Under the pieces are notes generated by a model. It searched no databases. It saw nothing but the letters and a program-made list of their open reading frames with translations, and was not told the origin of the DNA. From a phage, in sequence record NC_100371.1: DNA of 64,000 bases, one strand, 5' to 3'. Of the stretch, positions 1,657 to 14,831 are shown piece by piece (the first letter of the stretch is position 1; every line of letters starts with the position of its first letter). Made by a program: the position numbers and the translations under genes.

Positions 1657-2757
1657 TTAGATAAAACGCTTGAACATAGAAGGTGATGAGATTGATGGAA
1701 TCACACAAGGCAGCGCTACCTCCTCTTTCTCCAGGAAATTAATCGCAGAAGCTACACAGTCGGCCCAGTCGTCTTTTCTGTTAAATGTTGATCTTTCCCC
1801 GTTGAACTTTTCAAGTTCAGTCAGAAATGCTTCCAGAGTGTCAGGATGGAAACTGGATTTTACAATCCTCACCATTCCTTGTTGGGCAAGATTGGCAAAA
1901 GGTGAGAACCTTGTCAGTTTAGATTTGTTGGAAGGCATTGGATCTTCTTCAACCCTGAACCCTTCGGCGAGCAAGGATCTGGACGAGGTTAAGAATTCAC
2001 TCTTACCTGCCTGACCGGGGTCCACAGAAAATACGATTATGCAATCATCTCCATCAAACTGCGCCTGTTTCCTGATGATCACATCTCGTTCCCCAGCCTT
2101 TTTACAGAACTTACCTTCCAGACCTGTGGAATACCTACCGTCATCCACGTTCTCAGGACAATAATCTCCGGACAGGTAATAAAAGCCGTCGCTATCTTTA
2201 CTTACCTTAACACTGGCGGTAAAGTCAGGAAATTTATTACCGGAAGTTCTCTCGGTTCCTGCTTTATCCCATGCCCTGCAAGATACTGATCCAAGAGGTA
2301 CTCTATCGGCATCACGAAGGAAAGATCTTTGGAAATAGTTTGCACCCTCAGGTTTGGCAAACCAGTTGCCATGAAGAAGCTGGGCTTTTTCAAGCTCTGG
2401 CAGACCTTCAAGGAAAGCAAGGTATTCTGGGTTGTCTCTCAAGCAGACAGGGTTATCGAAAATTGTTGCTCCTATAAACGAGAATGACAACGGTCTTGGC
2501 TTGATCTCCACACCCAGTCCGTTAACCGTGGTGTATTTCTCTATTAACTCTTCTTTAGAGTCTCCCCAAATAAATTCACCGTCGCGTCGGATAAAATATC
2601 TTTTCTTACCACATTTCTCCGGATCTGGATACCCTTCATCGTCCAACCACCACCTGACCAGTTTGGCAAGCATGTGTTCTGAGTCGGGGTTACAACTGAT
2701 AACCATTCTTGATGGATACTTTGACTGAGATCGCAGACGAGACATCAAATAGTCTAT
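1657..2757 (-). CDS. terL: terminase large subunit, exon 2 (nuclease/C-terminal part)
   Basis: 363-aa ORF ending with a terminase-like nuclease region (DWADCVASAINFLEK); the frame stays open upstream to about 2781. The 5' boundary (3' splice site) is approximate. Confidence 0.65.
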   Translation of the reverse strand: MDYLMSRLRSQSKYPSRMVISCNPDSEHMLAKLVRWWLDDEGYPDPEKCGKKRYFIRRDGEFIWGDSKEELIEKYTTVNGLGVEIKPRPLSFSFIGATIFDNPVCLRDNPEYLAFLEGLPELEKAQLLHGNWFAKPEGANYFQRSFLRDADRVPLGSVSCRAWDKAGTERTSGNKFPDFTASVKVSKDSDGFYYLSGDYCPENVDDGRYSTGLEGKFCKKAGERDVIIRKQAQFDGDDCIIVFSVDPGQAGKSEFLTSSRSLLAEGFRVEEDPMPSNKSKLTRFSPFANLAQQGMVRIVKSSFHPDTLEAFLTELEKFNGERSTFNRKDDWADCVASAINFLEKEEVALPCVIPSISSPSMFKRFI

Positions 2758-3661
2758 CTGCTCCCATTCGAATTGCGTCGTTTATGTTCGGGCAAGGTCG
2801 CTAGTCTTGCCCCGCCATTTTCAGGCAGCTGCATGTCTCCATGCAGACCAGACTATATCTTATGAATGTGCAAATACTCTGCTGCTCTAAGAATGGTTTC
2901 CTCATCCTCTTGGAAGAAACCTAAAGCTCTGTTGCATTTATCACAAAGCAACCCTCTTACAGCACCAGTTTTATGGTCATGATCAACACAAAAGAAATCT
3001 CTGTACCCTTGCGTCCTATACTCATCAAGAGATATTCTACAAATGGCACACTTATGATCTTGATCTGAGAGTAAGCGATAGTATTCATCTTTTGTTATGT
3101 GAAATTTCTTCTCAATCTGATAAAACTTTTCACACATCTTACACCTGTTCGTAACCAGATACACTTTACCATAGTCACGTTTTGTGTAAAAACTATCAGC
3201 AAGCATACTTTCATGACAAGATTTACATTCAAAAAGCTCACCTTTCTTCAGTAAGTCTTGAATAAAAGATGCTGCATCATCTCTCTTAACCATATTTTTG
3301 TTTCTACGAGATCCATTCTTCCTGTAGTACATATAGCATTCCTTGCATGTACCGGAGTATCCATCCTTGCTCTTAGATGATAAAAAGAAATCATCAAGAG
3401 GTAGAACTCTTTGGCAATCCATACATTTTTTAGTATTACACATTCACCCTCCCGTTTCGAATCGCTTGATTCTACGTCTTTCGACTAGTCGTTGAACGTT
3501 CATCCTTTCGGATGCTTCGCTGCGGATTATCTAAATTAACACACTGTTACCATACCTTCGATCTCTCTTCGAAGCCTCTATCATGTTACCATGACAGGTT
3601 GGTGGTGTCAATAATAAAGATTTCCCCGCAATTAGGGAGGTTTTACGAGAGCTACAAATTA
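2758..3661 (-). mobile_element. group I self-splicing intron with embedded homing endonuclease gene
   Basis: Minus-strand matches to group I core elements P (AATTGCGGGGAAA), Q (AATCCGCAGC), R (GTTCAACGACTA) and S (AAGATATAGTC), in canonical order, sit between the two terL ORFs. Exon 1 ends ...GAT GAG GGT followed by TAA. Boundaries are approximate. Confidence 0.7.
2853..3443 (-). CDS. intron-encoded homing endonuclease, EndoVII/HNH-like with N-terminal zinc fingers
   Basis: 196 aa; motif DHDHKTGAVRGLLCDKCN resembles T4 endonuclease VII; several CxxC pairs; GGGAGGG RBS; the stop codon overlaps the intron S element. Confidence 0.7.
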   Translation of the reverse strand: MCNTKKCMDCQRVLPLDDFFLSSKSKDGYSGTCKECYMYYRKNGSRRNKNMVKRDDAASFIQDLLKKGELFECKSCHESMLADSFYTKRDYGKVYLVTNRCKMCEKFYQIEKKFHITKDEYYRLLSDQDHKCAICRISLDEYRTQGYRDFFCVDHDHKTGAVRGLLCDKCNRALGFFQEDEETILRAAEYLHIHKI

Positions 3662-4087
3662 ACCCTCATCGAAGCAAACCATGGTGTACTCAAGTCCTTG
3701 ATGGTTAAGCTTATCTTGGACATACTCCATGTGGCAGTATTTTACAACAGCTCCTTTTTTGCTCCTGTCCCACTTGCCAGTGCTCGGATCAAACCGTGGA
3801 AAAATAAACTTATGATCCTTCTCTCTGAACTTTGGTTTAATGTTTTCAGGCAGATCACTGTAAATAGCTACTGCTTTAGGCCATAGCCCACCCTCACCTT
3901 CCAACTGTGGAGTTGTTCTTCGGAACATAACCACAGAGCTGTGTGGGTCATCAATAATTTTAAGCGGCATCAACTGCAGGAGGAACGACTTACCTGACCC
4001 AGCCGCACCACCAATGACAAGAATGTCTGCATCGTTTTCCAGGATCATCTTCTGCTTTTCAGAACACGGTCCGTAAATCTTAGACAT
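3662..4087 (-). CDS. terL: terminase large subunit, exon 1 (ATPase N-terminal part)
   Basis: Walker A GGAAGSGKS and Walker B-like VCFDE; the ORF is cut by a stop codon right after the Walker B region, where the intron begins. Confidence 0.7.
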
Positions 4088-4374
4088 TAACCTCTCTCCT
4101 TTGGAAACAGTGTTCTAATATAGTCTTGCAAAATGATCAATTTAGCCCTATCATTACTGCAAGACAGGTTATTATCCCTCATAATGCCAGAATTCACCGC
4201 ATCAGGCGCACCTTTCTTTAAAGGTATAGCTTTAGCAGGAGGCTTCATAGCACCCTCGGGAGGTTTAACAATCAACCTTCCTACATCCGGAGGGTCAATC
4301 TTGTATTCTCTCTCAACGCTGGTTGCACACCCACACAATAACAAGCACAAAACAACCAGTGCAGTAACTCTCAT
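4087..4374 (-). CDS. o-spanin (Rz1-like outer-membrane lipoprotein)
   Basis: Signal peptide with lipobox-like LLCGC, Pro-rich mature part; strong RBS CAGGAGG; start overlaps the stop of the upstream i-spanin (ATGA). Confidence 0.55.
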   Translation of the reverse strand: MRVTALVVLCLLLCGCATSVEREYKIDPPDVGRLIVKPPEGAMKPPAKAIPLKKGAPDAVNSGIMRDNNLSCSNDRAKLIILQDYIRTLFPKERG

Positions 4375-4769
4375 CGAACCTCCTGATTGATACTCTCATT
4401 ATAAATATCTATTAGCTGATCAGGAAGTGTTGACTTCTTACCTTCAGGAGATTGGAGGTAGATAATCTGCTTTTCTTTGCCTGCCTTCTCAGCCATATTT
4501 AATTTATCCTGTAGATCAGAAAGAGATTTTTCAAGGTTTTTAACCTCCTCTGCGTGGCCCATTTTAATTTTGTCGGCCTGCTTTTGTTGTTGGTCAAGGA
4601 TCCGTTCCCACTTTAACTCTGTTGCTGACACACCTTCTTGATAAGCATCATTGAGCTTAGAGTTAAACCAATACACGGCCCCAAGATAAGCCATACCTAT
4701 AGCCGCTGCAAAAACTAAACCTTTTATGATCCCTCTGTGTTTACTCATCAATGTTAAAACTGAAATCAT
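4371..4769 (-). CDS. i-spanin (Rz-like)
   Basis: N-terminal transmembrane segment followed by a charged coiled-coil-like region; GGAG RBS. Confidence 0.5.
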   Translation of the reverse strand: MISVLTLMSKHRGIIKGLVFAAAIGMAYLGAVYWFNSKLNDAYQEGVSATELKWERILDQQQKQADKIKMGHAEEVKNLEKSLSDLQDKLNMAEKAGKEKQIIYLQSPEGKKSTLPDQLIDIYNESINQEVR

Positions 4770-5191: not shown

Positions 5192-5268
5192 TGGTCTCCA
5201 CGGAGTGATTCGAACACTCGACCTCCTGATCCCAAATCAGGCGCTCTACCAAGCTGAGCTACGCGGAG
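5192..5268 (-). tRNA. tRNA-Pro (anticodon UGG)
   Basis: Hand-folded cloverleaf: 7-bp acceptor stem, GTTCGAAT T-loop, anticodon loop TTTGGGA, encoded CCA. Confidence 0.75.
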
Positions 5269-5279
5269 TATTTATTATT

Positions 5280-5354
5280 TGGTGGCCCTGGGTGGAATTG
5301 AACCACCGTCTGGCGATTATGAGTCGCTTGCTTGAACCTTCCAGCTACAGGGCC
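5280..5354 (-). tRNA. tRNA-Met (anticodon CAU; could be initiator or Ile-lysidine type)
   Basis: Acceptor GGCCCTG/CAGGGCC, T-arm GGTGGTTCAATTCCACC, anticodon loop CTCATAA, encoded CCA. Confidence 0.7.
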
Positions 5355-5355
5355 A

Positions 5356-5431
5356 TGGTGCTGATGGCAGGACTTGAACCTGCAACCTATTGATTACAAA
5401 TCAATTGCACTGCCAATTGTGCTACATCAGC
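5356..5431 (-). tRNA. tRNA-Thr (anticodon UGU)
   Basis: Perfect 7-bp acceptor stem, D-stem GCAC/GTGC, anticodon loop TTTGTAA, T-arm GCAGGTTCAAGTCCTGC, CCA. Confidence 0.75.
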
Positions 5432-5435
5432 AAAA

Positions 5436-5534
5436 GGTGCTAGGTGATGGAATCGAACCATCTATGTATTCAACGACTACCTCGTCTATTTTCAGGATTA
5501 AAAATCCTCGCCCTTGCCAAAGGGCTTACCTAGC
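5436..5534 (-). tRNA. atypical tRNA-like gene (long variable region; anticodon not assignable by eye)
   Basis: Perfect acceptor pairing GCTAGGT/ACCTAGC and canonical T-arm GATGGTTCGATTCCATC, but about 99 nt long with an unusual anticodon-arm region (AGGAT-TTTTA-ATCCT); no complete encoded CCA. Confidence 0.4.
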
Positions 5535-5632
5535 TCAGCATGTTGACCATGTTGCTAGTCGGCGATGACGACTGTAACATTTGATAATCCGGTTCTGCTT
5601 CCGGCTTTCGCTTAATTACAAGGTCAACAATA

Positions 5633-5723
5633 TGGCAGAGGATAATGGAATCGAACCATCATCGAGTCATCCTCAACGGGACGGTTTTCAAGACCGCTTG
5701 AGCACCATTGCTCCCTACCCTCT
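5633..5723 (-). tRNA. tRNA-Ser (anticodon UGA), type II
   Basis: Acceptor AGAGGGT/ATCCTCT, anticodon loop CTTGAAA, long variable arm, T-arm GATGGTTCGATTCCATT, CCA. Confidence 0.7.
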
Positions 5724-5837
5724 TTTATAAACAATACTGATAATGACACTGATTTTCGAGCAGTTAGTGACTAGTATAAACGACGATAAATATCAATGCC
5801 ATTATCTGTATGATTTATGCATTTAAAAATATAAATT

Positions 5838-5925
5838 TGGTGGTGAGTGATGGAGTCGAACCACCCGAATCGCAATGATAACAGATTTACAGTCTGCCCC
5901 GCTACCCCTACGGAATTAACTCACC
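5838..5925 (-). tRNA. tRNA-Tyr (anticodon GUA), type II
   Basis: Acceptor GGTGAGT/ACTCACC, anticodon loop CTGTAAA, long variable arm, CCA. Confidence 0.7.
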
Positions 5926-6055
5926 TAAATACTAATATTTAAATTCTTTTTAAAATAGCTAGTGTTCTAACCACTAACTATGAGGTATCGGTAAAGTGGT
6001 TACCGCCACTTGCCGAAGATTTACTCTGCTAAAGTAAGCTACATTAAAAAGAACT

Positions 6056-6130
6056 TGGCACCCCGTACTGGACTCGAACCAGTGTCAACGGCTTAGAAGG
6101 CCGCTGCTTTATCCACTAAGCTAACAGGGC
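6056..6130 (-). tRNA. tRNA-Arg (anticodon UCU)
   Basis: Acceptor GCCCTGT/ACGGGGT, anticodon loop CTTCTAA, T-arm ACTGGTTCGAGTCCAGT, CCA. Confidence 0.75.
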
Positions 6131-8007: not shown

Positions 8008-8510
8008 AGCAGACTCCTCTTCAAGTTATAGAAAAACTCACTGTATCGCTTTGTAACGAGCTTTTCTATCAAACTGGTGCGATTGCCTTACTTGGTATAG
8101 TTTATATAGCTGTGGAGCGATTTAGGGGCCTTCTTGTCAGTTTCCACACATAAACTTTATCCGAACTCGCGCGGGAGGCTCTCAACCGACTCCTTCCGGC
8201 GCTGGCAAGCTTTCGTCGGTGGTCCACATTAGTGCTCGGCCTTTGGCCTGCGCTATCGCTTCGCTCCCACACATGTTAACAGTCCTGCATGTATGCACTT
8301 CTGTTATTGTGTGCACTATGGAGGCCCGGCATCTCGCCCCTCGTAGGCGAGTGCCAATGAAGGGCCGACACTACCCATAATAAGTAATAAATTTAAAACA
8401 TGGTACTTAGGATCTAGTATATTCTACATAAGTTAAGTATATGTACTTTAGTACCATAAGTACTAGATCTTTTATTTTTTATTATTTAGTTATTTTAGTT
8501 ATATTCTTTA

Positions 8511-8594
8511 TGTGTCCGTATCACGGACAGTTAGTGTCCGTATTACGGGCAGATGTGTCCGCGTGACGGACAGTAGTGTCCGTATCACGGACAG
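8511..8594. promoter_or_regulatory. array of four tandem palindromic operator-like sites
   Basis: Four ~21-bp units with consensus GTGTCCGTATCACGGACAG (inverted half-sites TGTCCGT / ACGGACA) at 8511-8530, 8532-8552, 8553-8573 and 8574-8594, inside a 660-bp intergenic region. Confidence 0.6.
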
Positions 8595-8668
8595 TTACTA
8601 ACCTCTGTTCCAGAGTGAACATAAAACATACAAATCCTTATAGTACAGATGTTTAAGTTTTTACTGGT

Positions 8669-9019
8669 CTAACCAGTTGTTGACATTCGAATAACTTCTT
8701 CTGGTGGCAAAACTTTGGAAAATGTGCATCTTTTACCTCTCCCTTGTGTGGATATTTCAACCACTCCTGCACATTCTAAAGTTTTAACGCACGCTGCTGC
8801 TTTTGTTTTCTTTATCCCAACATCTGCTGCAATTTTCCTGGTGCTGGGTGTGAAGCGTGAATTTTCTCCAAGCTTATACCAGTTGTGCAGGTAGCAGTAT
8901 ACGATCTTGTCATATAAGTCAAGAACAATAACCTCCCCAGTTGTGCCATTCAAAACTTTTGACATAGACAGTATTTCAAGGGGGACTTTAAGATATAGCA
9001 GCTTATCCCCATCTTTCAT
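8669..9019 (-). CDS. hypothetical protein, possible helix-turn-helix DNA-binding protein
   Basis: 116 aa; segment RKIAADVGIKKTKAAACVKTLECAGVV looks HTH-like; lies next to the operator array. Confidence 0.4.
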   Translation of the reverse strand: MKDGDKLLYLKVPLEILSMSKVLNGTTGEVIVLDLYDKIVYCYLHNWYKLGENSRFTPSTRKIAADVGIKKTKAAACVKTLECAGVVEISTQGRGKRCTFSKVLPPEEVIRMSTTG

Positions 9020-9066
9020 ATCTCCTGATTCTCCTTGTGTGGCAATTTTCTTTAAAATAGCAGGGA

Positions 9067-9621
9067 TTACTCCCCGCTGTCAATAGCAAGACTCATTGCA
9101 ATACGGTATGCCTCTTCTAATGGTAAGAGTCTCCCCCACACATCCCAACCGACATCAAACTGCCTGCCAAACAACTGCTGTGTGGTTCCGTGAGCATGAC
9201 CGAACAGTTGGACTGATCCGTGAGGCTTTCTGTTCCACTTTGCAAACTGGTAATGGCTCATACAGATCAAATTCTTGTTGTGGCGAAGCTCGTAATAATC
9301 TACAACCTCATGACCGAACTCTTTCATAATTCTGACAGTCGTCCTTGTGTCATGGTTACCACGAACAAGAATAATATGTCCGTTCAACATATTTAGAACA
9401 TCTGGAAGCAATTTGTTGATATTCTTATCATTAGTGCACGCAATATCCCCCAAGTGAAACACAGTGTCTGCAGGTGACACAACAGAGTTCCACTTGGTGA
9501 TGATTCCCGCATTCATACTGTCAAGATTGTGATCATACTGAGATCTGTGTTTTTGACATGAGTCGAACTCCATTACCCGCTGGTGGAGAAAGTGTGTGTC
9601 GCTTGTTACAAAGTATTTCAT
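9067..9621 (-). CDS. calcineurin-like metallophosphoesterase
   Basis: MKYFVTSDTHF...GDIACTNDK...VRGNHDT motifs. Confidence 0.6.
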   Translation of the reverse strand: MKYFVTSDTHFLHQRVMEFDSCQKHRSQYDHNLDSMNAGIITKWNSVVSPADTVFHLGDIACTNDKNINKLLPDVLNMLNGHIILVRGNHDTRTTVRIMKEFGHEVVDYYELRHNKNLICMSHYQFAKWNRKPHGSVQLFGHAHGTTQQLFGRQFDVGWDVWGRLLPLEEAYRIAMSLAIDSGE

Positions 9622-9628
9622 ACATTCC

Positions 9629-10039
9629 TCATTTAAGTTTAATGCAGTTTTTAAGCTGGCGTTCCATACGATCCACAACCCTGTCTGGAACATCATGAAT
9701 GCTTTTATTACCATGGCGGTTTTCAACCACGATCACGGTATAACTATATCCATGACTGATCGCCATGTCAATATATTCTTGCACATATTTTTCTTTTGTA
9801 AACGTATTACTTACCACGATACGGTCGTAGCCCATACGCATCATATCTTCTACGTTATCTTTGCACCATTTTGCTGCAAGTGTTACTTTACTTGCATCCC
9901 AATTGTAATTGCCGTCATCGTCGTACCAGAACATATCGTTCTCAAAATGTGGATACAGACCTTCTAAAGATAGCGCATTTGCCAGTGTTGATTTGCCAGA
10001 CCCTGGTAGACCACGCACGATATATAGCATTTTAGACAT
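9629..10039 (-). CDS. P-loop kinase, polynucleotide-kinase-like
   Basis: ATG at 10039 with GGAGAG RBS; Walker A GLPGSGKST; about 136 aa. Confidence 0.55.
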   Translation of the reverse strand: MSKMLYIVRGLPGSGKSTLANALSLEGLYPHFENDMFWYDDDGNYNWDASKVTLAAKWCKDNVEDMMRMGYDRIVVSNTFTKEKYVQEYIDMAISHGYSYTVIVVENRHGNKSIHDVPDRVVDRMERQLKNCIKLK

Positions 10040-10139
10040 AGTAACTCTCCGTTTTAATTTTAATGATAGTATACCTAACTGTTTTGTTAATTTCAAGTGT
10101 TGACACCAGGTTATTTGTGTGGCAGAATAAAGGGACAAA

Positions 10140-11075
10140 ATGACAAATGAGGAATGTATGATGAAGTATTTTAATGCAGACGACCTGGTTGACAAAGGTC
10201 TTGTAACCAGCAGATATTACCCAGATCTTGGATTAAAGATCTACAAATATGCCAGAAAAGTATTCTACAACAATTTATGGCATTTGTCTCCGCGTTTACT
10301 AGAGTGCCGAGGCATTGTTGTCGGTAATGAAGGAAATGTTGTGGCATGGCCCTTCACAAAAGTGTTTAATTTGGGAGAAAACTCCACCAACCTGCCTGAC
10401 AATAAACTTGTGACGGCGGTAGAGAAAAAGAACGGATTCCTTGGTGTGGTATCATCTCATAAAGGTGAACTATTGTTTTCAACAACCGGGTCTCTTGATT
10501 CTCCATATTGTAACCTTGCAAAGGAAACCATCCAGGAGCAATGTGGTAATTTAGATCTTATCAAGAAGGTTATGGGCCATGAAAACATGACATTCATGTT
10601 TGAAATTTGTCACCCTTCAGATCCGCATATTGTTCAGGAAGATCATGGCGCATATTTGATAGGTTGCAGATATAATGATTCTGGAATAATGCTACCAGAA
10701 GCAGCTTTAGATGGGATTGCCAAATACCTTGGTGCAAAACGTCCTCACACTGTGCGTGAAATTCCGTTCAGCTATGCAAAAGAATTAGCTGCAGAAACAA
10801 GGGGTGAAGGGTATATGATCCGTAAGCCTTACTACCCTTATGACCTGCAACTAAAGATCAAGTCTCCCTACTATCTGGCACGGAAGGCCGTAATGAGGTG
10901 TAGAGCTTGGAAGATTTGGGATGATGATATCTTTAAACGTGTTGACGAAGAGTTTTACGGCATGGTAAACTTCATTCGTAGGAACTACACAGAAGATGTG
11001 TGGAATTGCCTCCTGGAGCAGGAACGCCGTGAGATACTTGACTGCTATTTCCACAACGAGGACTATATGCAATGA
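10140..11075 (+). CDS. RNA ligase, T4 Rnl1 (RnlA)-like
   Basis: Blocks LLECRGIVV, KVFNLGEN, EKKNGFLGVV and FSTTGSLDS parallel T4 Rnl1 ECRGIMF / KFFNLNEN / KEDGSLVS / FKSKGSIKS, including the nucleotidyl-transferase lysine. Confidence 0.6.
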   Translation: MTNEECMMKYFNADDLVDKGLVTSRYYPDLGLKIYKYARKVFYNNLWHLSPRLLECRGIVVGNEGNVVAWPFTKVFNLGENSTNLPDNKLVTAVEKKNGFLGVVSSHKGELLFSTTGSLDSPYCNLAKETIQEQCGNLDLIKKVMGHENMTFMFEICHPSDPHIVQEDHGAYLIGCRYNDSGIMLPEAALDGIAKYLGAKRPHTVREIPFSYAKELAAETRGEGYMIRKPYYPYDLQLKIKSPYYLARKAVMRCRAWKIWDDDIFKRVDEEFYGMVNFIRRNYTEDVWNCLLEQERREILDCYFHNEDYMQ

Positions 11076-11422
11076 AGAAGTTGATTGTGTGGCTTGATGA
11101 TTTTAGAGATCCGTCAGATTATGGACTACCAGACGCTCTGTGGCTGAAGAATTCTTCTGAGTTTATGGATTTTCTTAATGATAAGAGAAAGCTCTACAGA
11201 CGCGTATCTGAGTGGTATTTTGACAATGATCTAGGGGAAGTGCTTGAAGGGTACGACTGCTTCTCTGCGCTAGAGGAGAAACTTGTATTCGGAAAGCCAC
11301 CACTTATTGACAACGTGATTATTTTCGTGCATACTTCTAATCCATCGGCAGCTCGTAAATTTATGCTTGCTGCTGACTCATTCAAGAAGTTTGGAATAGA
11401 GATCAAACAAAACATCTACTAA
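11072..11422 (+). CDS. hypothetical protein
   Basis: 116 aa; ATGA overlap with the RNA ligase stop. Confidence 0.45.
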   Translation: MKKLIVWLDDFRDPSDYGLPDALWLKNSSEFMDFLNDKRKLYRRVSEWYFDNDLGEVLEGYDCFSALEEKLVFGKPPLIDNVIIFVHTSNPSAARKFMLAADSFKKFGIEIKQNIY

Positions 11423-11430
11423 GGACATTT

Positions 11431-12192
11431 ATGCGACGACTTATTGTTATTTCTGGTGCTGGCTTGAGCGCAGAATCTGGGATCCCAACTTTTCGTTCTG
11501 GTCAAACTGCAATGTGGGAGAATTTCAGCATCGATGAGGTGTGTAACATCCACACCTTTGCCAAGAACTACTATAAGGTGCATGACTTTTACAATGCACG
11601 GCGTGTAGCTCTGGGCAGTGTTGATCCTAACCTTGCACATCTCCGGATCGCTGAGTGGTATTCACGTTGGTCTGGTCGTGTGATCAACCTGACAACCAAT
11701 GTAGATGATTTGCTGGAGCGTGCTGGTGTTAAACATGAAGATATCTTACATGTCCACGGGTATTTGCCTGAAATCACCTACGAAGATGCTGAAGGTAATG
11801 ATGTAATTAAAAATATCGGATACACGGAGGTAGATACAGGCAAGTATACTTGGGTTAAGCCCAATGTGGTGTTCTTCGGTGAGGTTGCTCCTAAGTATAC
11901 AGACATGTATGACCTATTGACATCTCTTACCAGCAATGATATGGTGATCCTGGTGGGTTGTTCTAACACAGTTATTAATTTTAACTGGGAATTGTTTCCT
12001 GCTACTTGTAAAGGCACAAAACTACTGATTGTAAACAAGTATGATTCGCAGAGTGCAGATGGAAGCGGCATTTCACGTAGCGACCTTTATCAATATGAGG
12101 ATCGCGGGATCCCGGTTTGGTTTAACGGGGCGGTTGATGCTTTCTCTGATAAAACATTCATTGAGACCGTAGAAAACTTTATGGAACTTTAA
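11431..12192 (+). CDS. Sir2-family (sirtuin-like) NAD-dependent protein
   Basis: GAGLSAESGIPTFR, TNVDDL and VHG motifs; no obvious zinc-ribbon cysteines. Confidence 0.55.
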   Translation: MRRLIVISGAGLSAESGIPTFRSGQTAMWENFSIDEVCNIHTFAKNYYKVHDFYNARRVALGSVDPNLAHLRIAEWYSRWSGRVINLTTNVDDLLERAGVKHEDILHVHGYLPEITYEDAEGNDVIKNIGYTEVDTGKYTWVKPNVVFFGEVAPKYTDMYDLLTSLTSNDMVILVGCSNTVINFNWELFPATCKGTKLLIVNKYDSQSADGSGISRSDLYQYEDRGIPVWFNGAVDAFSDKTFIETVENFMEL

Positions 12193-12205
12193 AAGGAGAC
12201 CTTTA

Positions 12206-12919
12206 ATGCTGAATACCAAATTAATTGACAACCTGGAAAAACTGTCCCAGCCTGAAAACTACCTTTGGTCTGCCAACTGGGTGGAAAACTGGAACCGTGT
12301 AGCAGCTAAAGTGAAAAAATCATACACACCATTCGAACTTCAGCTGAGTTTCATTGAGGAAGAGTTCAATGAGGTTTTGGAAGAGTTGGAGAAAGGTGAT
12401 GGTGGGGATCATCTCCTAAAAGAGGCCTGCGATCTTCATGTTGTCACAAGTTATGCCGCTTATCTTGTTAACGATAACCATGAAAAGTGGTCAAACCTGT
12501 TTGATAATCCGCGAGGTCTTAAGTTTAAGATCGGTGAATTTTATGATACACTGATCGCTGCGAAAAATACCTCTAAGCAAAGAGCGTCTGCTTACCGCTT
12601 AGCAGAGTTGTCAACAGCTTTGCTGTTCCAGCTTCGCGGTGATGTGTGCGGGATGATGCGGAAGGTTCTAAAATCTAATGACAGCAAGTTTGCACGCGTC
12701 AACCATCTGCGGTATTCACACGGTGCCAGTGCAGATATGCCTGCTGAACAACTCATCGAGTTGGAGATTAAAGATCTTGAGCGACGCTTTGATGGTCGCT
12801 ATGAAGGTTTTGTTGCTAAAGAAGAATTCTACAACGGAAATAAAGTTATCATATTCCTTGACAGTAAAGGTAAGATTATGAAGCCTTCAAGCTTCAAAGA
12901 TGTAACAGAATATATTTAA
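12206..12919 (+). CDS. possible MazG-like all-alpha NTP pyrophosphohydrolase
   Basis: EEEFNEVLEELEKGD ... KEACDLHVV resembles the EExxE...ExxD metal-binding pattern; weak call. Confidence 0.35.
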   Translation: MLNTKLIDNLEKLSQPENYLWSANWVENWNRVAAKVKKSYTPFELQLSFIEEEFNEVLEELEKGDGGDHLLKEACDLHVVTSYAAYLVNDNHEKWSNLFDNPRGLKFKIGEFYDTLIAAKNTSKQRASAYRLAELSTALLFQLRGDVCGMMRKVLKSNDSKFARVNHLRYSHGASADMPAEQLIELEIKDLERRFDGRYEGFVAKEEFYNGNKVIIFLDSKGKIMKPSSFKDVTEYI

Positions 12920-12925
12920 TAACAT

Positions 12926-12952
12926 AGCCGGGGCGATCCCGGCTTTACTTGT
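12926..12952 (+). terminator. rho-independent terminator
   Basis: GCCGGGG-CGAT-CCCGGC hairpin followed by a T-rich tail. Confidence 0.5.
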
Positions 12953-13292: not shown

Positions 13293-13548
13293 TCTTGCTA
13301 AACCTGTAGAAGCACACCAGTTTGACGGAAGCTCTTCATCAGTATCTGATCTGCAACGGTGGATTGATACAGGTGTGTTTACACCGTCACCTGTTCGGAC
13401 CAGAGATATTCTTCGCATGTGTGAGCTTGTCGAGCCGTTTGGTAACCTGGTCTTGTACCAAGGGGATTGGTTAGTTGACTTTATGGGAGACTGGTTGGTA
13501 ATTAGCAAAGAAGAGATGTTTAAAATTTTTAAGGAAGAGGCTGAGTAA
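13279..13548 (+). CDS. hypothetical protein
   Basis: 89 aa; AGAAGGAGGA RBS. Confidence 0.45.
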   Translation: MQLFNLAKPVEAHQFDGSSSSVSDLQRWIDTGVFTPSPVRTRDILRMCELVEPFGNLVLYQGDWLVDFMGDWLVISKEEMFKIFKEEAE

Positions 13549-14831
13549 TGCATCAGATCAAAACAACACTGTACGCACTGAACAAAGATGGCAGCTACCA
13601 ACAGTGGAAAGTATTCACGGATGGTGATAAGGTTATCGTAGAGTTTGGCAAGCTTGATGGTAAACTGCAATACAAAGAGACGATCTGCACACCTAAGAAC
13701 GTGGGTCGTGCCAATGAAACTACAGCTGAGCAACAGGCTGAGCTGGAAGCGATCAGTAAGTGGGAAAAACAAGTCCGTCTGGGGTATGTTGAAAATATGG
13801 AAGATTGCGAGCAGGGTGTTGACCTTTTACCCATGTTGGTGCATGACTACCTGAAGCGTGGAAAGGCACTTAAATTACCTTGCTGGATTTTGCGTAAGTT
13901 AGATGGCCTTCGTCTACTGGTTGTTTTCCAAAACGGTGAGCCTAAATTTATTTCCCGTGGTAATAAGTCCTACCCTATTCAAGGAAAGCTTCTGGAGCAA
14001 CTTCGTTCTTTCCACTTCACCACCGGGATTAAACAGCTCGACGGAGAGATCTATATTCATGGTCTGCCTCTGCAGAAAATAGTGTCTCTTGCTAAACGGT
14101 GGCGCACACAGGAAGAGATTCAGGCCGAGATCGATAAAGACTACGAGGCAGATAAAAAACGCCGTCATGCCGCAATTAAGGCAGGCTTATCAACATACAA
14201 AAACTTCAATAAGGTAGATATTCCTGTTGATGTTGAGCCTGTTCGTGATGATTTGCGTTACGGAGGGTACTGTAGCTATGACTTAGAGTATCATATTTTC
14301 GACATCCCTAGTGACAAGGTATGGTGGGATCCAGAAACAGAATCTGGACGATGCAAGGATCTTATGGATGCAGAAGATACCATTACCACCCTGATGCTTG
14401 ACCATATCAAGGTTGTTGACGCAGAGCTTGCGTACACAGTTGATCATTGCGAAGAATCTGTTGGTGTATTCATGTCCGAAGGATATGAAGGTACTATCAT
14501 GCGTAACTTCTGTGGTAAATATGAATATGGTCAGCGAACATCTGAAGCATTGAAATGGAAAAAGTTCAACGATGCTGAGGTGAAAGTTATTGACGTTGAG
14601 AAAGATAAGAATGATGAAGGTGTTCTTATCTGCGTTGACAAGGAAGGTATCGTTGTTAAAATGAAGATGAAAGGCACGCACGAGGAGCGTAGCTATGACA
14701 GGATGCAGGAAATGATCGGCAAGTTTATCACCTTCAAATATCAAGCAAGGACAGAAGACAACAACTACCAATTCCCTGTCGGCATCTGCGTCCGAAATGT
14801 TAACCCTGACACTTGGGAGGTTCTGGAATGA
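13548..14831 (+). CDS. ATP-dependent DNA ligase
   Basis: 427 aa; nucleotidyl-transferase motif I KLDGLR (KxDG). Confidence 0.6.
   Translation: MHQIKTTLYALNKDGSYQQWKVFTDGDKVIVEFGKLDGKLQYKETICTPKNVGRANETTAEQQAELEAISKWEKQVRLGYVENMEDCEQGVDLLPMLVHDYLKRGKALKLPCWILRKLDGLRLLVVFQNGEPKFISRGNKSYPIQGKLLEQLRSFHFTTGIKQLDGEIYIHGLPLQKIVSLAKRWRTQEEIQAEIDKDYEADKKRRHAAIKAGLSTYKNFNKVDIPVDVEPVRDDLRYGGYCSYDLEYHIFDIPSDKVWWDPETESGRCKDLMDAEDTITTLMLDHIKVVDAELAYTVDHCEESVGVFMSEGYEGTIMRNFCGKYEYGQRTSEALKWKKFNDAEVKVIDVEKDKNDEGVLICVDKEGIVVKMKMKGTHEERSYDRMQEMIGKFITFKYQARTEDNNYQFPVGICVRNVNPDTWEVLE

Follow-up and report, generated by a model that had tools for sequence, protein, structure and literature searches.

Bacteriophage T4 repairs tRNAs by means of Pnkp and the RNA ligase Rnl1, which together counter the anticodon nuclease PrrC; in T4 the kinase and a DxDxT (HAD) phosphatase domain are parts of one protein. 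In Clostridium thermocellum, Pnkp of the Pnkp/Hen1 system (CthPnkp) combines kinase, metallophosphoesterase and ligase in a single protein. The fungal and plant Trl1 and Tpt1 enzymes likewise supply a kinase, a cyclic-phosphate-opening enzyme, a ligase and an NAD-dependent enzyme. Defences that cut tRNAs are now known to be widespread in bacteria (examples are PrrC, RloC, PARIS, retron effectors, Cas13 and Schlafen-like nucleases), and to our knowledge RNA repair by phages has hardly been tested beyond the T4 paradigm. Here we analyzed a 64,000-nt stretch of phage DNA (NC_100371.1; the whole stretch is referred to as the window), in which positions 9067-12944 carry two divergent operons around a common control region of 100 bp. 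These operons include genes for an RNA ligase, a kinase and a phosphoesterase, and we propose, with a probability of roughly 0.7, that the locus serves the phage as an RNA heal-and-seal system, with its enzymes encoded by separate genes, and mends cut RNAs such as tRNAs.

A locus of this kind has already been the subject of a published prediction. Iyer, Burroughs, Anantharaman and Aravind (2022, Viruses 14:1977, PMC9503650) described a sirtuin-centred RNA repair neighbourhood, "type 2", with Escherichia phage V5 and Proteus phage Mydo as prototypes, consisting of a T4-like tRNA ligase, cREC, a nucleotide kinase, a sirtuin, MazG and a calcineurin-like phosphoesterase, and predicted that it serves NAD-utilising RNA repair. 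It is the same locus as the one in the window, seen in phage V5: all six genes of the V5-type neighbourhood are present within 9067-12919, where identity to phage V5 is 95.7%. A 2025 paper on Pakpunavirus (PMC12846349) made the same suggestion of tRNA repair by a kinase and a ligase, the kinase there having no 3′-phosphatase domain. The cluster is real, but its genes carry annotations already and its function has been predicted in print for phage V5; our result confirms it and is not new. What we add are refinements, not discoveries: the kinase and the phosphoesterase are constant partners of the ligase, gene fusions link the three, and the phosphoesterase belongs to an aq_1665-like branch.

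A sequence-only reading of the window had placed three open reading frames (ORFs) of this system at 9067-9621, 9629-10039 and 10140-11075. All three are there, and the ligase is indeed transcribed divergently from the kinase and phosphoesterase, across the 100-bp spacer. The limits of the module had been drawn too narrowly, at 9067-11075, since genes for cREC, a sirtuin and a MazG-like protein follow the ligase in an operon that covers 10140-12919. The profile searches that had been suggested as a check (Rnl1 ligase, PNK kinase, metallophos) placed all three core proteins above the Pfam curated cut-offs. The PHROG matches of the three genes were far stronger, at 2e-58 to 2e-65 in one summary (values for single families are given below).

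The ligase matched PF09511 (RNA_lig_T4_1) with 55.7 bits against a cut-off of 28.3, its residues 55-245 covering the full 227-position profile, and it matched phrog_562 with E=2e-65. A database search returned 1681 relatives, nearly all of 290-320 amino acids, while T4 Rnl1 has 374, and this short-form clade was found in 665 sequenced phages. A single-sequence phmmer search with the ligase against PDB sequences gave no relevant match, so that a family profile was needed. The profile built from 37 ligase sequences matched T4 Rnl1 (2c5u) with E=1.5e-12, only over T4 residues 51-249. The residues invariant in the 37 homologues are R57, K74, F76, K96, G99, E155, E223-G224, K239 and K241; in the 2c5u alignment, where the chain is offset by +1 from T4 numbering, they correspond to R54, K75, F77, K99, G102, E159, E227-G228, K240 and K242 of T4 Rnl1, respectively. 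We take these T4 residues to be the ones that mutagenesis in the Shuman laboratory identified as essential for activity. The adenylyltransferase motifs are all present, namely the Lys nucleophile of KxxG, motifs III, IV and V, and the Rnl1-specific upstream Arg, Lys and Phe. An AlphaFold model of the ligase (predicted local distance difference test, pLDDT, 91.3; predicted template modelling score, pTM, 0.87) had T4 Rnl1, fungal Trl1 ligase domains and archaeal Rnl3 as its closest solved folds, with E~1e-12 and a TM score of ~0.6. The catalytic domain is followed by only about 65 helical residues, which include the conserved basic residues K248, K249, R253, R296 and R297. Judged by its sequence, the ligase is a member of the Rnl1 catalytic family, but of a distinct short subfamily.

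The earlier naming of a P-loop kinase is supported. The protein scored 41.1 bits with AAA_33 (cut-off 27) and matched phrog_505, "polynucleotide kinase", with E=3e-10. R9, G10, G15, K16, T18, D35 and H115-x-V117-P118 are invariant in 29 diverged homologues, the P-loop GxxGxGKS/T is intact (G10...G15-K16-S17-T18), and the invariant D35 is aligned with the catalytic Asp35 of T4 Pnkp. The single kinase sequence gave no informative match in a phmmer search against PDB sequences. The best PDB relatives of the kinase profile were L-seryl-tRNA(Sec) kinase (PSTK), Capnocytophaga Pnkp1, T4 Pnkp, the CthPnkp kinase domain and mammalian PNKP, with E=1e-8 to 1e-5, and nucleoside and nucleotide kinases scored lower. 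The alignment with 1ly1 has an insertion at T4 Arg38 and ends before Arg126, and no family-invariant Arg lies downstream of D35. We propose that this protein is a candidate 5′-OH RNA kinase.

The phosphoesterase exceeded the cut-offs of both Metallophos_2 (28.5 bits, cut-off 27) and Metallophos (27.8 bits, cut-off 21.5), and matched phrog_547, "phosphoesterase", with E=5e-51. Five metal motifs are invariant or nearly so (D8-x-H10, G58-D59, G88-N89-H90-D91, H123 and G141-H142-x-H144), as are the further residues H13, W129 and D160, in support of its earlier description as calcineurin-like. The closest solved protein is Aquifex aq_1665 (1xm7), both by profile (E=4.5e-25) and by Foldseek with the predicted model (E=1e-7; pLDDT 94.5). 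The sequence reads GDIACT and GNHD, as opposed to the GDxxDR and GNHE that are signatures of the lambda-phosphatase/CthPnkp phosphatase branch, and neither lambda phosphatase nor the CthPnkp phosphatase was among its top 50 fold matches. Its hidden Markov model also gave no match to the Pnkp-like domain of the Leptolyngbya fusions described below. The phosphoesterase is thus outside the end-healing branch of bacterial Pnkp (lambda-phosphatase/PrpE/ApaH) and sits in the uncharacterised aq_1665-like branch. Membership of the PdeM and YfcE families was rejected, the scores of 20.6 and 20.5 bits being far under the cut-offs of 150 and 56. We propose it as a putative 3′-end healing enzyme, with activity as a 2′,3′-cyclic phosphodiesterase and/or a 3′-phosphatase. 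Most of its homologues end in a conserved DHH/HH, which is missing from the window protein (ending ...IDSGE).

The gene neighbourhoods of relatives of the ligase independently support a common function. We took 80 IMG/VR loci encoding ligase relatives (37-88% identical), extended by up to 8 kb in either direction, and searched all ORFs with iterated profiles of the window proteins; collapsing ligases more than 70% identical left 41 non-redundant loci. A kinase was found near the ligase in 74 of the 80 loci (37 of the 41 non-redundant ones) and a phosphoesterase in 62 (35 of 41). In comparison, a DNA ligase was present in 42 loci (14 of 41), MazG in 13 (4 of 41), the sirtuin in 11 (3 of 41) and cREC in 10 (3 of 41). 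Among the non-redundant loci, 20 had a NadV-like NAPRTase and 13 a PRPP-synthetase-like gene. Unbiased clustering of all neighbouring ORFs also ranked kinase and phosphoesterase first by a wide margin, with the NadV-like NAPRTase next. The order of the three genes varied, as phosphoesterase-ligase-kinase, kinase-ligase-phosphoesterase or ligase-phosphoesterase-kinase, and the divergent order was found only in the rV5 group. In PMC9503650 the sirtuin is the focal gene and the phosphoesterase is described as "occasional"; when the count starts from the ligase, as here, the phosphoesterase and kinase are the constant elements (35-37 of 41), and sirtuin, cREC and MazG join them rarely (3-4 of 41). 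In other phages the ligase-kinase-phosphoesterase triad often lies within 8 kb of NAD salvage genes (for a NadV-like nicotinamide phosphoribosyltransferase and a PRPP-synthetase-like protein; for example at 1862-3595 and 3667-4560 in locus L005). The annotation of the rV5 record at 59139-121000 contains no NadV-like product name, and the window was not searched with a NadV profile.

Gene fusions of three kinds join the same activities; kinase and ligase are fused in loci L048 and L086 and, with a metallophosphoesterase domain between them, in L103. In one phage group, L048 encodes a kinase-ligase fusion of 432 amino acids, with AAA_33 at 16-115 and RNA_lig_T4_1 at 184-367, and no alternative phosphatase was recognised by Pfam among its neighbours. 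In Cardiobacteriaceae, a kinase-ligase fusion is directly followed by the same phosphoesterase as in the window. Leptolyngbya sp. PCC 7375 encodes a 712-amino-acid fusion of AAA_33 (20-156), Metallophos (185-357) and RNA_lig_T4_1 (451-643), in which the kinase-phosphatase part resembles bacterial Pnkp (TIGR04075, 181 bits) and the phosphoesterase is of the PrpE/ApaH type. The co-occurrence of the three genes across diverged phages in several orders, together with these fusions elsewhere, supports a functional link between them. The strongest argument for 3′-end healing by the phosphoesterase is that the ligase clade has been linked to a polynucleotide-type kinase and also, separately, to metallophosphoesterases of two different branches.

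The analysis establishes directly that the proteins belong to their families and keep their catalytic residues, how the operons are laid out, that the linkage is conserved and that the genes are fused elsewhere; from this we infer the enzymatic activities, the RNA substrate and a role against host nucleases as follows. A metal-independent ribonuclease would cut an RNA, most plausibly a tRNA cut by a host anticodon nuclease or toxin, and leave a 2′,3′-cyclic phosphate and a 5′-OH. The 136-amino-acid P-loop kinase would phosphorylate the 5′-OH, and the 184-amino-acid dinuclear metallophosphoesterase would open and remove the cyclic or 3′ phosphate to give a ligatable 3′-OH. The short Rnl1-type ligase, adenylylated on Lys96, would then join the 3′-OH to the 5′-phosphate. 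Host nucleases that produce cyclic phosphate ends would generate the likely substrates, cleaved tRNAs or other RNAs, as suggested by the precedent of T4 Pnkp and Rnl1 against PrrC and by the phage's own set of tRNAs. Kinase, phosphoesterase and ligase would form the conserved core, to which Vequintavirus would add cREC, sirtuin and MazG as an NAD-dependent branch handling 2′-phosphate or ADP-ribose by-products, as proposed by Iyer et al. (2022).

The proposed chemistry is that of T4 Pnkp and Rnl1 in all three steps, 5′ phosphorylation, 3′ end healing and ATP-dependent sealing. The nucleotidyltransferase domains of the two ligases are homologous with their catalytic residues kept, and the kinases belong to the same P-loop group with the catalytic Asp aligned. 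The kinase and phosphatase of T4 are one protein, whereas here they are encoded by two genes, and the place of the HAD domain is taken by a metallophosphoesterase; both differences had been pointed out before and are borne out by the ORFs and the Metallophos matches. The variant repair pathway suggested on their basis is less new than implied, since bacterial Pnkp already uses a metallophosphoesterase. Bacterial Pnkp has the same set of a P-loop 5′ kinase, a dinuclear metallophosphoesterase and an ATP-dependent ligase, in one polypeptide as compared with three here, and its phosphoesterase is of the lambda-phosphatase/PrpE/ApaH branch as compared with the aq_1665-like branch here. The Leptolyngbya protein joins a Pnkp-like kinase-phosphatase to a homologue of the window ligase.

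Several observations count against the heal-and-seal proposal. The Lys of motif Ia (T4 Lys119) is not kept in the ligase, which has an invariant Thr116 instead (S114-T115-T116-G117), and with the T4 RnlA equivalog TIGR02308 the ligase scored 38.7 bits against a cut-off of 242.25, over profile positions 32-250 of 373. T4 Rnl1 is longer by about 65 residues, and its C-terminal domain, which confers tRNA specificity in T4, has no detectable sequence counterpart in the window ligase. The label "T4 Rnl1-like" given by the sequence-only reading thus holds for the nucleotidyltransferase domain, by the 2c5u match and the fold, but not beyond it. As for the phosphoesterase, aq_1665, its closest solved relative, is itself of no known function, and the next folds are Mre11, the MJ0936 phosphodiesterase, LpxH and GpdQ, which are nucleases and diesterases, and not the CthPnkp 2′,3′-phosphatase; going by the modelled fold, it could be an end-trimming enzyme or have a small molecule as its substrate. 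Common descent, and not selection, could account for much of the synteny, but the rearrangements and gene fusions point the other way. The tRNA genes are 3-4 kb away with unrelated genes between, and their proximity is weak evidence. Finally, our literature search found no biochemical or genetic study of these proteins.

The genes that follow the ligase allow a more elaborate scheme. cREC matched PF20274 with 52.1 bits (cut-off 27), a single-sequence phmmer search against PDB sequences being uninformative; its conserved residues are D9-D10, R12, D51, D53, H87-T88-S89-N90-P91 and K96, so that the receiver-type acidic residues are kept and the H-T-S-N-P motif is invariant. The sirtuin matched PF02146 with 98.6 bits (cut-off 24) and phrog_2162 with E=2e-108, and keeps the GAGxSxxSGIPxFR NAD-binding motif and the HG motif. 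No CxxC pairs follow HG in the translation, and the protein is, as far as its motifs tell, a sirtuin-fold protein without the canonical zinc module. The MazG-like protein matched phrog_671 with E=5e-22 and had no Pfam match. Among the surveyed loci, the cREC-sirtuin-MazG extension was limited to Vequintavirinae-like phages of ~145 kb, and because it accompanies the ligase in so few non-redundant loci (3-4 of 41) it is not required for the core reaction.

Section 3.7.3 of PMC9503650 puts forward a route that refines rather than contradicts the heal-and-seal proposal. In it, cREC or the phosphoesterase would open the cyclic phosphate to give a 3′-OH and a 2′-phosphate, the ligase would seal the ends, and the zinc-less sirtuin would remove the 2′-phosphate at the junction with NAD+, in the role of Tpt1/KptA, while cREC and MazG would clear ADP-ribose cyclic phosphate. 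The Vequintavirus locus would then do in a phage, with unrelated components, what the Trl1/Tpt1 pathway does in eukaryotes, a reading that we consider unlikely. The four genes are organised as a single operon that has a coupled start and ends in a common terminator, the catalytic-type residues of cREC are conserved, and in fold the ligase resembles Trl1-LIG (6n0t, 8rbj and 6n67) as closely as it does T4 Rnl1. The NAD salvage genes, as the next commonest ligase neighbours in other phages, would also fit an NAD-dependent step. However, the core pathway can do without cREC, sirtuin and MazG, which are rare in the census, where kinase and phosphoesterase are common. Compared with Trl1 and Tpt1, the proteins here are separate, there is no 2H phosphodiesterase domain, and the sirtuin would need to take on the NAD-dependent role of Tpt1. 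We know of no sirtuin that acts as an RNA 2′-phosphotransferase, and we found no experimental follow-up of the proposal in the literature. If it were true, RNA 2′,3′-cyclic phosphates would be processed by enzymes of new classes, the aq_1665-type metallophosphoesterase and/or cREC, and the zinc-less sirtuin would be an NAD+-dependent RNA 2′-phosphotransferase, an activity new for sirtuins.

The same enzymes might serve routine RNA processing in the phage, such as maturation or turnover of its own tRNAs or mRNAs, and not counter-defence. Seven phage tRNA genes lie nearby, and ligases of the Rnl1/Trl1 type serve tRNA splicing in eukaryotes, but all seven tRNAs are free of introns, the 97-nt tRNA-Lys(UUU) having a long variable arm and an uninterrupted anticodon loop, and Pnkp-like fusions of the triad are present in cellular genomes as well, which fits repair; we regard this explanation as quite improbable. 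It seems just as hard to maintain that the three genes are unrelated neighbours, with the phosphoesterase a protein phosphatase or a phosphodiesterase for nucleotides or signal molecules, the kinase specific for nucleotides, NAD or small molecules, and the ligase acting alone or as a tail-fibre attachment factor. The kinase does exceed the Zeta_toxin cut-off (24.8 bits against 22.3; CPT is weak and below its cut-off, 16.9 against 22), and the nearest folds of the phosphoesterase include small-molecule diesterases. The fusions of kinase and ligase, with or without phosphoesterase, and the predominance of kinase and phosphoesterase among ligase neighbours speak against it. A protein phosphatase, named earlier as an alternative, is disfavoured, as the PPP-type PP5 came no higher than ranks 49-50 among the fold matches and its E-values (0.24-0.27) were not significant. 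The "tail attachment protein" label in GenBank records was carried over from T4 gp63, and we rejected that role for the ligase, whose similarity to T4 Rnl1 is limited to the catalytic domain.

Once shown, the enzyme roles would explain a gene set that is frequent in phages (the 665 with the ligase, usually together with kinase and phosphoesterase), and they could help to predict which therapeutic phages resist RNA-targeting defences. The interest that remains lies in the chemistry of the putative phosphoesterase, cREC and sirtuin activities.

Table 1. Positions of the repair locus, its control and terminator elements and the tRNA cluster in the window (aa, amino acids).
Feature	Position	Strand	Description
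Phosphoesterase gene	9067-9621	-	ORF of 184 aa; small dinuclear metallophosphoesterase, aq_1665-like branch
Kinase gene	9629-10039	-	ORF of 136 aa; minimal P-loop kinase, polynucleotide 5′-kinase group
Divergent control region	10040-10139		100-bp spacer between kinase/phosphoesterase operon and ligase operon
Ligase gene	10140-11075	+	ORF of 311 aa; short Rnl1-type ATP-dependent RNA ligase
cREC gene	11072-11422	+	116 aa; cyclic-phosphate processing receiver-like domain
Sirtuin gene	11431-12192	+	253 aa; no Zn-binding cysteine pairs
MazG-like gene	12206-12919	+	237 aa; nucleotide pyrophosphohydrolase, last gene of the ligase operon
GC-rich hairpin	12926-12944		Bidirectional-terminator-like; 8 pairs, 6 of them GC, in a terminator scan; found on both strands
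Cluster of seven phage tRNA genes	5192-6130	-	Pro, Met/Ile(CAU), Thr, Lys(UUU), Ser, Tyr, Arg; ARAGORN and Rfam

The control region contains a promoter-like site for each direction (Table 1), TTGACA-17-CAGAAT with a TG extension at 10100-10128 on the plus strand and TTGAAA-17-TATACT at 10096-10068 on the minus strand, both of which are matches to the consensus only. Translation of the ligase probably starts at 10158 rather than at 10140, giving 305 amino acids, because a GAGGA ribosome-binding site is present at 10148-10152 and the -10 element of the best plus-strand promoter-like site ends at 10128. The homologues begin at the same position, and the gene is annotated with 918 nt in phage AlexBoehm. 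An identical 16-mer, AATGAGGAATGTATGA, which holds the GAGGA ribosome-binding site and ATG, occurs at 9621-9637 (minus strand) and 10144-10160 (plus strand), preceding the phosphoesterase start and the probable ligase start. This repeat could be a common translation-initiation signal or a small duplication. The stop codon of the ligase overlaps the start of cREC (ATGA), coupling the translation of cREC to that of the ligase, and the ligase, cREC, sirtuin and MazG-like genes make up one operon that is closed by the hairpin. Beyond the RNA repair operon, 600 bp further downstream, there is a gene for an ATP-dependent DNA ligase (13548-14831, plus strand).

The sequence-only reading had counted seven tRNA genes about 3.5 kb from the module. 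ARAGORN and Rfam found six each, both missing one, and the number of seven is obtained only as their union; the cluster is separated from the phosphoesterase gene by 2.9 kb and from the start of the ligase by 4.0 kb. tRNA-Lys(UUU), at 5438-5534 on the minus strand, has a variable region of about 27-31 nt (Rfam alignment versus fold) with a 5-bp extra arm, a class-II-like shape that is unusual for tRNA-Lys. ARAGORN presented it at 5436-5534 with a 4-nt anticodon, and a tRNA intron or splicing was considered and rejected, as the Rfam alignment and fold gave a normal UUU loop and a long variable arm. This tRNA is annotated in AlexBoehm and not in rV5. PrrC and PARIS both target tRNA-Lys(UUU), and the window copy could therefore be a nuclease-resistant replacement.

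A megablast search with positions 8500-12300 returned 119 phage records, 117 of them with an identity of 90-99% over no less than 80% of the query. Close matches were Escherichia phage V5 (rV5, NC_011041, 95.7%) and the BASEL phages AlexBoehm, EduardKellenberger and MaxTheCat, and DNA identity between the window and Escherichia phage V5 was 95-97%; from this identity the window was assigned to Vequintavirus, as an E. coli phage of the rV5 type. The three core genes are labelled "RNA ligase 1 and tail attachment protein", "ATPase" and "phosphoesterase" in the rV5 record, and "RNA ligase", "polynucleotide kinase" and "putative phosphoresterase" in that of AlexBoehm. Eighteen unannotated GenBank records of "Campylobacter phage" (for example MG065654 and MG065658) were 95-97% identical to E. 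coli rV5-like phages in this region, and are probably mislabelled or represent coliphage contaminants of Campylobacter phage preparations.

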